The notes under the pieces are model-generated. The model was not told the DNA's origin, ran no database searches, and was given only the letters and a program-made list of their open reading frames with translations. The position numbers and the translations under genes were made by a program. DNA of 39,640 nt from a virus (Duplodnaviria; Heunggongvirae; Uroviricota; Caudoviricetes), in IMG/VR virus record IMGVR_UViG_2563366929_000005, one strand, 5' to 3'. This document shows positions 1 through 18,059 of the stretch, in pieces (the stretch's first letter is position 1; each line of letters begins with the position of its first letter).

Positions 1-1236
1 ATGGCGCTGTCTGATGCGTGGTTGCGTTCAGTCGTTGGAAAGGAACGTGATAAGGTTTTGGTTAAATCCGATCGTGATGGTCTGTCTGTCAGAGTATCAC
101 CGAAAGGTCGCGTAGTGTTCCAATATCGTTATCAATGGGCAGGGAAAGGTGAGCGCCTTGATATCGGAACTTACCCGGCAACTGGATTAAAAGAGGCCAG
201 AGAAGAAGTTATCCGTCTCCGTGGTGAACTCGAGTCAAACCGCAATCCACGATTAGTCAAGCAGGCTGAAAAACGAAAAGCTACTGAAGCCATGACGGTA
301 GAGTCTGTGATCCGTGCCTGGTATGAAGCATATTGTGTAAAAAATAAAAAAGGTTCTGAACAGATACTCCGCTCGTTTGAGCTGCACCTGTTCTCTAAAA
401 TCGGGAATATCCCTCACGATGCAGCTACATTGCATGATTGGTTAGAAGTCCTGGAGCCTCTTAGCACCAAGACTCCAGCAATAGTAGACCGATTGCTAAT
501 TAACGCAAAGCAGGCCCATGTCTGGGCGTATAAGAGAAAGCTCATTGAAACTCGCCCACTGTCGGATATCACGGGTAAAGATATGGATATCCGTAAAGGT
601 CAGAAAAAACGGTTTCTGACACATGATGAAATTAACATCCTTTATGCTGCGATCGATGGTTCTCGAATGGTTCCTAAATACCGAGCCTTCATTAAACTAT
701 TGCTGCATTTTGGTTGCCGTAGTTCAGAGCTAATTACTGCTAGGGTGGATGATTTTGATTTCATAAATAAGGTATGGACTGTACCACCAGAACGACATAA
801 GACTGGGGACATAACAGGCGAACCGCTAAAGCGGCCCATTATTGAACCGGTTGAAGAGCTTATAAAATACGCTATCTCTATGAACAACGGTTCCGATATG
901 CTTTTTACTAAGGAAGGAAGCAGGGAGCCAGTTGGTCGGACATCATTGCAGTCGCTGCCTTACAATTTAATGCAGTTCGCATGGCGACGTTTGGGGTATC
1001 AATTTCCTCATTGGTCTCTTCATGATTTGAGACGAACAGCACGAACAAACTTTTCTGATCTTACTGCTCCTCATATTGCTGAAATAATGCTCGGTCATAA
1101 ACTGCCAGGTGTATGGCAAGTTTATGATAAGAGCGATTATCTAGAAGAACAGCGTAAAGCTTACTGGGCATGGTGGGAGAGGGTTGAATCGATCGTTACT
1201 TGTACTGACTTAATCTCCAACGGACAGTTTGCGTAG
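1..1236 (+). CDS. int: Tyrosine recombinase / phage integrase (P4-type), 411 aa; ORF starts at window base 1
   Basis: 411-aa ORF; N-terminal region (MALSDAWLRS...GLSVRVSPKG...FQYRYQW) is typical of P4/CP4-57-type integrases; C-terminal HDLRRTA and catalytic-domain-like LGH...Y segment. Leftmost gene of the prophage. Confidence 0.88.
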   Translation: MALSDAWLRSVVGKERDKVLVKSDRDGLSVRVSPKGRVVFQYRYQWAGKGERLDIGTYPATGLKEAREEVIRLRGELESNRNPRLVKQAEKRKATEAMTVESVIRAWYEAYCVKNKKGSEQILRSFELHLFSKIGNIPHDAATLHDWLEVLEPLSTKTPAIVDRLLINAKQAHVWAYKRKLIETRPLSDITGKDMDIRKGQKKRFLTHDEINILYAAIDGSRMVPKYRAFIKLLLHFGCRSSELITARVDDFDFINKVWTVPPERHKTGDITGEPLKRPIIEPVEELIKYAISMNNGSDMLFTKEGSREPVGRTSLQSLPYNLMQFAWRRLGYQFPHWSLHDLRRTARTNFSDLTAPHIAEIMLGHKLPGVWQVYDKSDYLEEQRKAYWAWWERVESIVTCTDLISNGQFA

Positions 1237-1394
1237 CCAGAGCGTAATCATATCTGCCAGTCCGCTGCGGATACCTTGTGTACTGGGTTTTTAGCCAGAC
1301 TACGTTAACCGGTAGCTTCAGTATTTGGGGGGGCGGCAGGAGTTTGATGGTTTATTGGGTTACTGTGGGACTAAGGATGTAGGGATGCCAATCA

Positions 1395-2528
1395 ATGAAT
1401 TATGAAAAATATCATAGCACAAACAGAAGCAAGGGTTTGCGAACCTTCTGCTACTTAATTTATTATGTGCAGGTGATTTTTAATGTGATGAAGTGTTTTA
1501 TGACTCGCGGAAACTTTGATTTTATAAACTCTAACGTGGTTTTCTCAGAAGCCGATAAGTCATTGTGGATTGATCTCATTAACACCGATTGTATTTGGTA
1601 TGATATGATAATTAATCCTCCTGATGATATAAGAACAAATAAGATAATAAAGAACTATCTCAGAATTATGGAAAAATATACGAGGGAAAGCTGTGAAAAG
1701 AGATTTATTTATTTCTTAGGTTCAAGAAAAAAAGTAAGGTTTTCAACCAAGAAACAGCCTAGGTATAACCCATTCACAAAAAATATAGTATTCACTCTGT
1801 TGATTGGCAAAGAAGAGCGAAAGCTTCGGATAAAATATTCCTTTTGCACGTTTACGCAGAATGGGGTAGTGAAGGTAACTCCAAATGTTAGAGTAACTGA
1901 GAAGTTTCTCTACATTGAATATGAAAATGGCAATTTATGTGTGATGTCAGTTCATGACTTCGTAAACGGACATTATATTGATTTAGGAATTCATACAGAA
2001 GTGCATTACGTAGGATATACACGTCATCCGCATCGGCGCCCTGTTGATTTTATTCACCGTGGCTTATCAAAGATGCTGTATAGCGTTTCAAATGACGATA
2101 ATGATTTTTTTGTTTGTTTTAGTATATTTAATCCAAGGATTATATCTCTGAATAATAAATGTAATGTGGTCTTTAATATTTCAAATTCTCTACTGGATGA
2201 AATTGATGTTGATAATGAGGGGAGAATTATTGAAAACTGCTTAATACGTTACTTTGATCCTAAGCTTCAAGATGATGACAAGGAAAGTAAAAGGTCAGAT
2301 TTAAATAAAATGTTTATGGACCTGGTGGAAAATAAAAAAATTAAAAAAATATACGTTAATTTTCAATATGAAAGGAATAATGAGTATTTCTGCTTTTACT
2401 CTAAAGTTGTTCCGCCGAAATTTCATCATTTCTTTGTGTTGGATTTTTCTGATGGCAAGATAAATATTGATAGAGACCAGGATATGATGACTCAGATGGC
2501 ATTGTGTATGGGGTATTATAATTATTAA
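1395..2528 (+). CDS. Hypothetical protein, AT-rich orphan (377 aa by longest ORF; true start may be ATG 1488)
   Basis: Long uninterrupted ORF in a visibly AT-rich segment, N/K/I/Y/F-rich translation, no motif I recognise. AGGTG lies about 11 nt upstream of in-frame ATG at 1488. Sits between int and xis. Confidence 0.55.
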   Translation: MNYEKYHSTNRSKGLRTFCYLIYYVQVIFNVMKCFMTRGNFDFINSNVVFSEADKSLWIDLINTDCIWYDMIINPPDDIRTNKIIKNYLRIMEKYTRESCEKRFIYFLGSRKKVRFSTKKQPRYNPFTKNIVFTLLIGKEERKLRIKYSFCTFTQNGVVKVTPNVRVTEKFLYIEYENGNLCVMSVHDFVNGHYIDLGIHTEVHYVGYTRHPHRRPVDFIHRGLSKMLYSVSNDDNDFFVCFSIFNPRIISLNNKCNVVFNISNSLLDEIDVDNEGRIIENCLIRYFDPKLQDDDKESKRSDLNKMFMDLVENKKIKKIYVNFQYERNNEYFCFYSKVVPPKFHHFFVLDFSDGKINIDRDQDMMTQMALCMGYYNY

Positions 2529-2737
2529 TATTTCGCTTGATACCAACTCAAAATCTTTTTTGTCGCATCCATTGTGGATTAATATTCAGAGGTAAGGGGT
2601 ATCTGCGGAATTTATATTTTGCAGGATGAGCATACAATACATGATATAACATCTGTTTTTGGCACAGAGCATATAGTCAGATTATGTTTAGTTCTGTGCC
2701 ATAGATGGATACTATCTCACCTCTTGGCTAACTCTCA

Positions 2738-2932
2738 TTACTCAATAATTCCAGCAAATCTGTATATTTTGCGTGATGCCCATTTATTTGGGCAGGATTT
2801 GATATCAGGATCTGGAAAATCAGGCCTGTATTTCTGGCCAGTTCTCCTGTTTACGCTGTTCCAGCGAAGAACAGTCGATACTGAAACGCCACAGAAGTCG
2901 GCGACTTGTTTAGTTGTCATTAAGTTGTTCAT
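2738..2932 (-). CDS. xis: AlpA/Xis-type excisionase-like DNA-binding protein (64 aa)
   Basis: MNNLMTTKQVADFCGVSVSTVLRW is a typical AlpA/excisionase HTH; AGGAGG immediately upstream on the minus strand; last gene of the leftward operon, adjacent to int. Confidence 0.7.
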   Translation of the reverse strand: MNNLMTTKQVADFCGVSVSTVLRWNSVNRRTGQKYRPDFPDPDIKSCPNKWASRKIYRFAGIIE

Positions 2933-3552
2933 TACTTCACCTCCTGCGGCGGCTCCGGTAGCGGCATCCAGTGGGTTACTTTCGATGCCGGTTCTTCCCC
3001 ATCGTCAGTAACTGCCCACCATTTGTTTCTCGACCAATCGTAATACCCTTCGAAGGTATCGCACTCAGTCCAGCCGTAAGACTTACCCCAACACCAAACA
3101 TACTGTTTATCGTCCGGCATTCGCTCACTACAGCTTATCCAACCATCCGGAGTTACCGGAGAGTTGCCCGACAGCTCGTTCAACTTGTAAGACTGGCTTA
3201 CAGGTTCGGCACCATGAAGCATGGCGGCGCGGCAGGCGTTCCAGCCTTCATCAAAGCCGACTATGCCATTATTTAAAGACGGACGAACATCTGGCACCAT
3301 CGGCACTGGCTTGGCTATATATAGCGGCTGAACATACCAGCCCTTTGATAACCAACTGTCAGCAATGTTTTTACTCCGTGTTATTGCCGGAATACCTAAG
3401 CCATTGTCTGAATGCAGCCATGCCACCGGTTCTGCTTTCAGCGAGGCTAACGCTATTTCATAAGCTCGGTGCTCAATATTGTCTCGCACGTCCAAGCTGC
3501 CTATGCGCTCTTTGATTTCTTTAATCAGTTCTTTGTCGGTGAAAGTGGTCAT
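2932..3552 (-). CDS. Phage protein with C-terminal DUF551-like domain (206 aa)
   Basis: C-terminus ...DGWISCSERMPDD...THWMPLPEPP resembles the DUF551 signature common in enterobacterial prophage early regions. Confidence 0.65.
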   Translation of the reverse strand: MTTFTDKELIKEIKERIGSLDVRDNIEHRAYEIALASLKAEPVAWLHSDNGLGIPAITRSKNIADSWLSKGWYVQPLYIAKPVPMVPDVRPSLNNGIVGFDEGWNACRAAMLHGAEPVSQSYKLNELSGNSPVTPDGWISCSERMPDDKQYVWCWGKSYGWTECDTFEGYYDWSRNKWWAVTDDGEEPASKVTHWMPLPEPPQEVK

Positions 3553-7149: not shown

Positions 7150-7644
7150 ATGACCAGAGACGATTATAAATTTTATGTTCACTACTCTTATGTATTGGAG
7201 AAGATGAATTACACGTTGTTAACTCGCATTGATAAATTAATAACGTTGATGTTAATCGTTCTCGGTTTTTCAGTTTTCGCCCCGTACAGTAATTTATTTA
7301 TTTTCGGTTTGTTTGTTGCCGTACTTTCGGTTCTTCAGTTGGTCTATCAGTTTGGCCAAGAGGCTGGAATGTCTAAAGAGCAAGCGAGGCATTACAAAAG
7401 ACTGCTGATTGAGTCTGATACCCTTCCTGAAGATCAGTTGCAAGCTAGGTATTTAAAAATCCAAGATACTGATAGTAATCCATGGAAATCACTTGAACGA
7501 GCGGCTTTCATTCGGGCCTGTATTTTTGCTGGTGTTCCAACTAAGTACGATTTAACAACCAAAGAAAAATTTATAGCTTGGTGTGCGGGAGATCTACCTC
7601 TAGAGAATGAACTAACGGATATTAATGATGACCAACAAGCATAA
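7150..7644 (+). CDS. Two-transmembrane membrane protein, 164 aa, unknown function (candidate exclusion/abortive-infection effector)
   Basis: Clean ORF in an AT-rich region; two adjacent hydrophobic helices (LITLMLIVLGFSVFAPY and LFIFGLFVAVLSVLQLVYQF) followed by a charged, about 90-aa soluble tail. Rightward, convergent with cI. Confidence 0.6.
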   Translation: MTRDDYKFYVHYSYVLEKMNYTLLTRIDKLITLMLIVLGFSVFAPYSNLFIFGLFVAVLSVLQLVYQFGQEAGMSKEQARHYKRLLIESDTLPEDQLQARYLKIQDTDSNPWKSLERAAFIRACIFAGVPTKYDLTTKEKFIAWCAGDLPLENELTDINDDQQA

Positions 7645-17519: not shown

Positions 17520-18059
17520 TTAGAAACTGCGTGGAGCTGTGGAAAGAATGGATGCCAGTTCTTCCTTCGATAAATCCCAGCTTCGATTTACAGCGTCAAT
17601 TTTCTTAAACTCATCAAGCATTGCGTTATAGAGATGTTCTGTACGTGAATGAGTATTGGCAATGGGCTGTTTCTGTTCGGGGAAGCGATCAATTTTCTGA
17701 TATGCCTCAATGATACTGAAGTAATCGCATTCATTATTACCGTCGAAACCTGGGAGCTGAATTGCCCCATCATGTATTTTTAGATGATGGTCACGGACTA
17801 ATTCTTTTTGCTCGTCATCACTAAGTTTCCTGAAAGCATTGGAAAGTCCGCGATACATATTCAAGACAGCAGTAACAAAATCACGATCTTCTTTACTTGG
17901 TTCGTCAACATCCAAATGTGAATATTCGGCCTTGATAACCCAATCATTACCAGATGACACAGCATATTTAACAAGCTGTGGATCAATATCAGTTTCGATA
18001 CCTAGGTGGATGGCAATGTCACATAACAAAATGGTATTGATTTTATCTTTAATATCCAT
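17520..18059 (-). CDS. YfbU (UPF0304)-like protein, 179 aa, opposite-strand moron
   Basis: ATG at 18059 with AGAGGG SD on the minus strand; lower GC than the flanks; motif order (...NMYRGLSNAF...LPGFDG...) resembles YfbU-family proteins from memory. Confidence 0.55.
   Translation of the reverse strand: MDIKDKINTILLCDIAIHLGIETDIDPQLVKYAVSSGNDWVIKAEYSHLDVDEPSKEDRDFVTAVLNMYRGLSNAFRKLSDDEQKELVRDHHLKIHDGAIQLPGFDGNNECDYFSIIEAYQKIDRFPEQKQPIANTHSRTEHLYNAMLDEFKKIDAVNRSWDLSKEELASILSTAPRSF

Follow-up and report, generated by a model that had tools for sequence, protein, structure and literature searches.

The closest characterised analogue of the gene product described here is CMoRE/PD-T4-3 (PDB 9u75), a single-component type IV restriction endonuclease of the GIY-YIG type (PMC12923530, PMC9519451). 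CMoRE is specific for DNA that contains 5-hydroxymethylcytosine (5hmC) or its glucosylated form (5ghmC), with sensing done by a separate domain and autoinhibition by an acidic loop (PMC12923530). Our subject is a gene in IMGVR_UViG_2563366929_000005, a 39,640-nucleotide stretch of viral DNA that we call the window and that is an essentially complete lambdoid prophage. The gene lies between the integrase (int) and excisionase (xis) genes.

1500..2528, + strand: coding sequence, 342 amino acids plus stop; PHROG 7779, with a probable divergent GIY-YIG core

It is highly probable that the conserved centre of this protein is a divergent GIY-YIG domain. From the context of the gene we lean towards the prediction that its product is a soluble, cassette-encoded, single-component nuclease directed against phages or other mobile genetic elements.

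The protein is not a member of CMoRE/PD-T4-3. It has no PADLOC match to the PD-T4-3 profile, and its core is central, whereas CMoRE has an N-terminal GIY-YIG domain and a C-terminal sensor. In place of the GIYxY motif of CMoRE, the window protein has F-I-Y71-F-L and S-V-H152-D-F, without the second Tyr. Other GIY-YIG enzymes are different in other ways. T4 EndoII (DenA, PDB 2wsh) is a single domain of 136-144 amino acids that is encoded by a lytic phage and degrades host DNA, whereas the 342-residue window protein includes additional domains and its gene resides mostly on bacterial chromosomes and temperate or conjugative elements. The N-terminal domain of UvrC (PDB 1ycz) functions in nucleotide-excision repair and the catalytic domain of I-TevI (PDB 1ln0) in intron homing, each with other partner domains; unlike them, the window protein lacks the canonical GIY-YIG hairpin of 10-11 residues and has Gln257 in place of Asn. 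Free-standing GIY-YIG homing endonucleases join an N-terminal catalytic module to C-terminal DNA-binding modules and are inserted beside a conserved target gene, which is not the arrangement found here.

The conserved core and the architecture around it

The window protein belongs to an uncharacterised family whose probable GIY-YIG membership was hitherto unrecognised. An earlier, sequence-only reading of this open reading frame (ORF) called the product an orphan. This is correct insofar as the protein has no match in Pfam (E <= 1), NCBIfam or PADLOC (v2 models), the last being a check which that reading had proposed. It is not correct for proteins at large, as the family numbers 46 clusters at 90% identity and, in a set of 1.84 billion proteins, 216 representatives at the 50% level. 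All full-length matches (about 280 amino acids or more) cover the whole family profile and the shorter ones are fragments; thus, the architecture of the family is uniform. Searches of PDB sequences with phmmer and profile hmmsearch did not match the protein, and a weak NNH2 match (E = 0.05) was dismissed as noise. We found no mention of the protein, its accession or its PHROG in the literature. PHROG 7779 is listed with function unknown and has no Pfam or NCBIfam model, and our analysis provides a provisional fold assignment for it.

The argument for a GIY-YIG fold begins with two overlapping regions (residues are numbered from the ATG at 1500).

1953..2057, + strand: His-rich segment, residues 152-186, the most conserved part of the family
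1995..2285, + strand: predicted GIY-YIG core, residues 166-262, comprising beta2 (YVG), alpha1 (H186), beta3 (D202-FF), a hairpin and alpha2

The His-rich segment had been picked out by the earlier reading, and it contains H152, the YIG motif Y170-V-G172-x-T174, P177, R180 (the catalytic Arg equivalent) and H186. Helix alpha2 bears E240 and E245, the latter being the equivalent of the metal-binding Glu, and is followed by Q257 and position 260 (the Asn equivalent). The aligned core reads (V/I)-H-Y170-(V/I)-G172-x-T174-x-x-P177-x-x-R180-P-x-x-x-x-H186-x-G, followed by D202-F-F, N229, E240, E245, Y251-F252 and Q257. The alignments also contain a conserved upstream motif, R-F-I-Y71-F-x-x-x-R76-x-K-V-R80-F, and conserved C-terminal residues S301 and H310. 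The statement that the protein has no recognisable motif is therefore superseded by the series Y-V-G-x-T ... R ... H ... E.

Conservation is strong at the positions expected to be catalytic: Y170, G172, T174, R180, H186 and E245 are each present in 82-91 of 101 family sequences. The YIG motif (Y170-V-G172-Y-T174 in the window protein) has its Tyr in 86, its Gly in 90 and its Thr in 91. R180 (84/101) and H186 (82/101) lie at offsets +10 and +16 from the YIG Tyr, and the Tyr-to-Arg spacing of +10 is the same in the sequences of I-TevI and UvrC (here and below, comparison sequences are those of the T4 record or that of E. coli K-12). E245 (85/101) falls on the Glu helix of UvrC and I-TevI in the alignments, and E240 is present in 82. 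R180 and H186, both near-invariant, make up the R-x5-H pattern for which a HEPN-like site had been suggested. This spacing is indeed shared with HEPN RNases, but HEPN domains (all-alpha, Rx4-6H) have a different fold and we reject the assignment on that basis.

Comparisons of sequence and profile point in the same direction. PF01541 (GIY-YIG) was matched by 9 of the 101 relatives when these were scanned singly (best E 1.8e-4; whole-protein E <= 1), and it was the sole recurrent Pfam family, every other family being found in at most 2. In hhalign comparisons, EndoII VYIGKTKNLRKR and I-TevI YVGSAKDFEKR both had HYVGYTRHPHRR (Y170 to R180) as their best local match, and the His-rich segment was paired with residues 47-66 of T4 EndoII and 15-29 of I-TevI. 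The best match of UvrC EALLLEHNYIKLYQPRY was EGRIIENCLIRYFDPKL, in the E245 helix. We also built a HMMER core profile from residues 164-262 of the 76 catalytically intact members and scored each enzyme against 300 composition-matched decoys. EndoII and UvrC outscored 300/300 decoys and I-TevI and SegG outscored 295/300; the T4 Seg proteins and I-TevII gave little or no signal in the HMMER profile tests. When a candidate beta1 strand was added before the core profile, the alignments to EndoII and I-TevI became co-linear over nearly the whole catalytic domain.

A structure prediction with a Foldseek search had also been proposed by the sequence-only reading. The AlphaFold2 model made from the family alignment is confident (pLDDT 90, pTM 0.88), and its core is a small three-stranded antiparallel sheet flanked by helices (beta-beta-alpha-beta-alpha-alpha), as in GIY-YIG domains. 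The search of the PDB with the full model returned only noise (spike proteins, galectins and kinesins, with TM below 0.2).

Some features argue against the fold assignment. The canonical GIY-x10-11-YIG spacing is not present, there being no Tyr 10-11 residues before Y170. A conserved Asn 12-15 residues past the Glu is also missing: position +12 is Gln257 (Gln in 67/101), and position +15 is Asn in 52/101 and Asp260 in the window protein. For the window protein itself, similarity to GIY-YIG sequences is sub-threshold, with no match to the PF01541 clan at E <= 1. In addition, profile chimeras did not tell FIY71 and SIH152 apart as the GIY strand.

These two candidates for the GIY strand, F-I-Y71 (99 residues upstream of YIG) and S-I-H/Y152 (18 residues upstream), lie in the first two of the regions that flank the core.

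1695..1742, + strand: EKRFIY71FLGSR76KKVR80F strand, residues 66-81, with Y71 as the favoured GIY tyrosine
1743..1994, + strand: beta-rich domain, residues 82-165, ending in S-I-H152-D-F, the alternative GIY candidate
2286..2525, + strand: C-terminal alpha/beta region, residues 263-342, with near-invariant S301 and H310

Y71 is present in 91, R76 in 96 and R80 in 93 of the 101 sequences. A model of the core only (residues 143-262) has no strands at 166-174 or 201-209, both of which are present in the full-length model. This loss is consistent with an intervening strand supplied from outside 143-262, and favours Y71. The full-length model also aligns 9-31 more residues than the core-only model to the same GIY-YIG structures. 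The pattern of loss within the family is similarly suggestive. Y71 is missing in 9 of the 25 relatives with a defective core and in 1 of the 76 with an intact one (Fisher p = 8e-6, with no phylogenetic correction), and H186, E240 and Q257 also disappear together with the core, whereas H/Y152 is kept regardless. We conclude that Y71 is probably the GIY tyrosine and that about 85 residues, forming a beta-rich domain, are apparently inserted within the GIY-YIG hairpin, the protein having further elements at its N and C termini.

A second set of residues has a different history. Even members that look nuclease-dead keep R76, R80, D202, Y251, S301 and H310, and the last two persist whatever the condition of the nuclease core. 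This set could be a binding or sensing surface. In about 10% of representatives (e.g., P0105, P0116, P0123, P0144, P0169 and P0177), nearly all of Y71, Y170, R180, H186 and E245 are gone. The apparent insertion of a domain into the hairpin and the survival of a residue set in relatives with a dead nuclease are both of interest for structure and evolution.

We also observed an acidic run, D258-D259-D260 (window 2271-2279), after the catalytic-Glu helix. It is found only in the enterobacterial clade, the family consensus being Q-x-x-N. The run is reminiscent of the acidic autoinhibitory loop of CMoRE, a resemblance that may be coincidental.

A horizontally acquired cassette in the int-xis slot

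With its flanks, the gene makes up a self-contained cassette, about 1.4 kb long, that entered the int-xis slot of a lambdoid prophage by horizontal transfer. The elements of the cassette and its borders are as follows.

1..1236, + strand: tyrosine integrase, the left border of the cargo slot
1265..1499, + strand: conserved 5' leader and putative promoter region that accompanies the gene and takes in the non-coding "extension" 1395-1499
1437-1442 (TTGCGA) and 1461-1466 (TATTAT), + strand: sigma-70-like site with an 18-nucleotide spacer, within the leader
2529..2650, + strand: 3' flank of the cassette, with no convincing terminator or RNA structure
2738..2932, - strand: excisionase-like small DNA-binding gene that converges on the cargo gene and borders the slot on the right

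The identities of the border genes come from annotated relatives. The 1..1236 ORF is labelled tyrosine-type recombinase/integrase in E. coli MS8345 and integrase in PhiR63_1, cdtI and 2H10, and the homologue of the 2738..2932 gene is labelled excisionase in cdtI and 2H10 and DNA-binding protein in some E. coli genomes. These annotations and the ORF list bear out the earlier description of an uninterrupted frame at 1395..2528 (+) between int and xis. The cargo region has an identical counterpart in a prophage of E. coli MS8345 that adjoins yjjG, and phage PhiR63_1, from ECOR13, is 99% identical to it.

Like other phage morons, the gene is an insert of deviant base composition, and its orientation is opposite to that of the early-left genes. 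With a GC content of 0.32, it falls below the 0.50 averaged over the window (z = -3.5 relative to all 1-kb windows), and it is the sole 1-kb stretch below 0.40 GC in the 39.6-kb window, in agreement with the low GC reported by the sequence-only reading. The bias is not peculiar to this prophage: at 42 of 42 loci the GC content of the gene is lower than that of its flanks, by a mean of 14 GC points (Wilcoxon p = 2e-8).

Window positions ~1265-2650 form a discrete 1.4-kb module that is found, with about 83% identity, in Dryocola, in Pantoea and on a Serratia conjugative plasmid. These three contexts are unrelated to one another and have no int or xis homologue nearby. Short repeats at chance level were all that we found at the ends of the cassette, and we reject terminal repeats or att-like sites as its boundaries. 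In one E. coli genome (NZ_CM128544.1), the match to the region is split in two by an IS1-family transposase, and we take this to be an IS1 insertion within or beside the cassette.

The sequence-only reading gave the protein as 377 amino acids. This is the correct length of the ORF from its first Met at 1395, but the true start is almost certainly the ATG at 1500 (Met36 of the longer frame), which gives 342. PGAP annotation starts at Met36. The match to PHROG 7779 extends over residues 36-377 of the longer frame and takes in all 342 profile positions (E = 1e-246). Homologues are about 320-345 amino acids long, and nearly all start at a conserved MxRG that aligns with Met36. Lastly, nucleotides 1395-1499 are kept as DNA in the three ~83%-identical orthologues, with the frame disrupted by 1-nucleotide and 2-3-nucleotide indels. 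Together these points lead us to reject the Met1 start, and the start codon in some annotations should be corrected to 1500. Because the start is at 1500 and the upstream frame is broken in orthologues, nucleotides ~1265-1499 are a non-coding leader. The leader is about 85% identical in Dryocola, Pantoea and the Serratia plasmid, though the surrounding genes differ, and its -35-like TTGCGA is invariant among the orthologous leaders. The 3' flank is conserved across the same loci as far as about 2644-2663. A structured RNA or riboswitch in either flank was considered and rejected, as Rfam gave no match for the leader or the 3' flank and the latter folds no better than shuffled sequences (z-score 0.07).

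The gene is rare and widely scattered. It is present in 62 of 5,426 complete E. coli genomes, in single copy and at the same prophage junctions, in 1 of 50,697 phage records, and at 47 loci among 185,579 species-representative genomes. These 47 loci span Gamma- and Betaproteobacteria, Campylobacterota, Desulfobacterota, Verrucomicrobiota and Acidobacteriota.

As the earlier reading had supposed, the space between int and xis serves as a cargo slot, and its content varies among related phages. In cdtI and Ayreon, whose int and xis are near-identical to those of the window, the same slot holds BovA, the protein of the single-gene Borvo system (PADLOC E = 2e-241). BovA (710 amino acids) is unrelated to the window protein; what the two have in common is use of the slot and a single-gene organisation, not homology. 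O-antigen modification genes, which had been suggested as typical cargo, were not seen in any relative examined. In cdtI, BovA is orf33 (L013 2852-4984, 710 amino acids), and its GenBank labels, "hypothetical protein" or "Valyl-tRNA synthetase", look like mis-annotation. The slot holds unrelated orphan ORFs in a Stx2c-converting phage (L017 1596-3149, -, 517 amino acids), a Stx1a-converting phage (L018 1834-3150, -, 438 amino acids) and 2H10 (L014 3010-3729, +, 239 amino acids). None of the three has a Pfam or PADLOC match, and they are candidates for further uncharacterised cargo.

Outside this prophage, homologues often adjoin known defence genes. In Robbsia, the homologue has a BrxR-regulated Bil system on one side and two reverse-transcriptase genes on the other; the compact R. 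andropogonis island (L003 3969-13129) comprises a BrxR-like regulator, the BilA-D ubiquitin-like system, the family member and adjacent reverse-transcriptase genes of 661 and 430 amino acids. The Salmonella homologue is in an integrative and conjugative element (ICE) and adjoins a Dcm/Vsr-type restriction-modification system, that in Acinetobacter is at the cargo end of a Tn7-like element, and that in Pseudomonadales is near CcdAB and a PIN toxin. Strong matches in a PADLOC scan of the two nearest genes on each side at 41 species loci include the following.

Hachiman: HamA (E = 1e-103) and HamB (E = 8e-258)
PARIS: AriAB (E = 2e-193)
Dodola: DitA (E = 8e-176) and DitB (E = 1e-99)
Shango: SngA (E = 3e-96)
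CBASS: TRIP13 (E = 1e-128)
AbiE: AbiEii (E = 3e-117)
Candidate system: PDC-S05 (E = 1.5e-147)

There is no recurrent partner among these neighbours: across the 148 nearest neighbour genes at the 41 loci, no Pfam family occurs more than twice. The non-recurring neighbours rule out a conserved partner such as a methylase, antitoxin or helicase. They also set the gene apart from type II restriction-modification systems, there being no recurrent methyltransferase neighbour and none in the window slot.

Possible functions of the cassette

We consider the gene a credible candidate for a single-gene role in phage defence, which is how the sequence-only reading had seen it. The lack of a conserved partner, the defence genes nearby, the patchy and rare distribution and the AT-richness in every genome all make this plausible. 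We infer nuclease activity, a defence role and target discrimination for the protein, together with its expression and regulation, along the following lines. A lysogen would express the gene from its own leader, and the product would cut the DNA of an invading phage or other mobile element. The putative active site consists of Y170, R180, H186, E245 and Q257, probably with Y71 as the GIY tyrosine. Parts of the protein outside the catalytic site, including R76, R80, D202, Y251, S301 and H310, might recognise a mark on foreign DNA, which the GIY-YIG site would then cut. As there is no methylase, discrimination would have to depend on something other than host methylation. In the most economical version, the cue would be a modified base or unusual DNA structure, in the manner of type IV restriction and CMoRE/PD-T4-3; alternatively, the protein might be activated by a sign of infection, in an abortive type of response.

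Convergence with xis suggests one possible mode of regulation. After induction, leftward early transcription would pass through xis first and then run antisense into the cargo gene, which it could damp, limiting self-targeting. This is plausible and is only speculation on our part. There is a parallel in prophages of S. aureus, where a convergent xis-like gene shuts off a defence gene that adjoins int (PMC11087260).

If the proposal is correct, E. coli prophages, ICEs, plasmids and Tn7-like elements carry a compact (~1 kb) single-gene immunity module, which would be a second GIY-YIG defence family, architecturally distinct from CMoRE. Such a module could account for some of the limits on phage host range in clinical E. 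coli lineages. A nuclease without a methylase must distinguish foreign from self DNA, and the cue that it uses could yield a reagent, as CMoRE has for detection of 5hmC.

Several observations count against a nuclease that serves in defence. At least one of Y170, R180 and E245 is lacking in 25 of the 101 relatives, and about 10 of the 101 look fully nuclease-dead; the function of the family may thus not always need cleavage. Neighbours at many other loci are ordinary housekeeping genes. In addition, the distal neighbour set, which was meant as a background control, is itself defence-rich: genes 6.5-10 kb off include Gabija, Druantia, DRT UG10 and MADS. Thus, the near-versus-far comparison failed as an enrichment control, and many of the loci are extended defence islands. 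As to expression, a promoter scan found no more sites than expected by chance and no statistically supported promoter, and no terminator-like site was found after the gene.

A more specific proposal, which we put forward tentatively as a possibility, is that the cassette is an undescribed single-gene system in which a split GIY-YIG domain carries a sensor domain in its hairpin and a second pocket reads a mark on foreign DNA or a signal of infection. Retention of this pocket in nuclease-dead paralogues would then imply that sensing or binding can act without cleavage.

An abortive-infection or toxin-type system seems to us unlikely, although it has several attractions. The same GIY-YIG protein would be held inactive until an infection cue (a phage protein or nucleotide) entered the second pocket, and the indiscriminate DNA degradation that followed would kill or arrest the cell, giving defence of the population rather than selective restriction. 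A solitary nuclease without a methylase or immunity partner fits such a scheme, as do a second residue set that is independent of the nuclease core and the presence among the neighbours of abortive-type systems such as CBASS, AbiE and PARIS. CMoRE provides a precedent for autoinhibition by an acidic loop (PMC12923530), and D258-D259-D260 follows the Glu helix here; however, that run is specific to one clade and is absent from the consensus. Nor did we detect any known sensor domain (STAND, SMODS-associated, TIR, etc.) in the protein.

We give less credence again to the idea that the protein is not a nuclease in function, its core being a structural or DNA- or ligand-binding scaffold with a role in regulation, exclusion by binding, metabolism or repair. 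The sub-threshold similarity to GIY-YIG proteins and the housekeeping neighbours are compatible with this, and so is the loss of nearly all catalytic residues in about a tenth of relatives that keep R76, R80, D202, S301 and H310. However, the window protein and 76 of the 101 relatives retain the Tyr, Arg, His and Glu at canonical spacing, and the catalytic residues are lost jointly, indicating that they function together.

It is quite improbable that the cassette is a selfish element, similar to a homing endonuclease or an addiction module, that spreads itself by cutting DNA with no defence benefit to the host. GIY-YIG is a classic homing-endonuclease fold, the best sequence matches are phage T4 enzymes, and the compact cassette with its conserved flanks has been inserted into unrelated contexts. 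However, the flanking genes are non-homologous between insertions, and there is thus no conserved target allele. Moreover, no NUMOD or helix-turn-helix DNA-binding tail was detected in the protein, and the gene is single-copy in each genome and without terminal repeats. Free-standing homing endonucleases typically reside in phage genomes, and this gene was found in just one phage record.

A nuclease that benefits the phage itself, like T4 EndoII, by degrading host DNA in lytic growth or processing phage DNA, is very improbable for a gene that has its own leader, lies opposite in strand to the early-left operon, occurs in a single phage record and has most of its homologues in chromosomes, ICEs, plasmids and transposons.

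Other reading frames in the window

Beside the cassette, a 130-codon ORF with a TTG start (window 2619-3011, +) overlaps xis and the DUF551 gene on the other strand. Its counterpart in PhiR63_1 (L002 2851-3216, +) is annotated as a hypothetical protein of 121 amino acids. Pfam and PADLOC gave no match for the ORF, and it is probably a spurious gene call.

Two further ORFs in the prophage have low GC content. One (window 17520-18059, -; 179 amino acids; GC 0.39) is antisense to the late region and encodes a protein with a YfbU domain (PF03887, E = 6.5e-12) and a weak match to a Cfr10I/Bse634I restriction-endonuclease-like model (E = 0.0015); it is another moron-like insert. The other (window 7150-7644, +; 164 amino acids; GC 0.378) has no Pfam match. 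It is beside the cI-like repressor gene, on the strand opposite to the early-left genes, and by eye its product has two hydrophobic, seemingly transmembrane stretches. It looks like a second moron, possibly of the superinfection-exclusion type.

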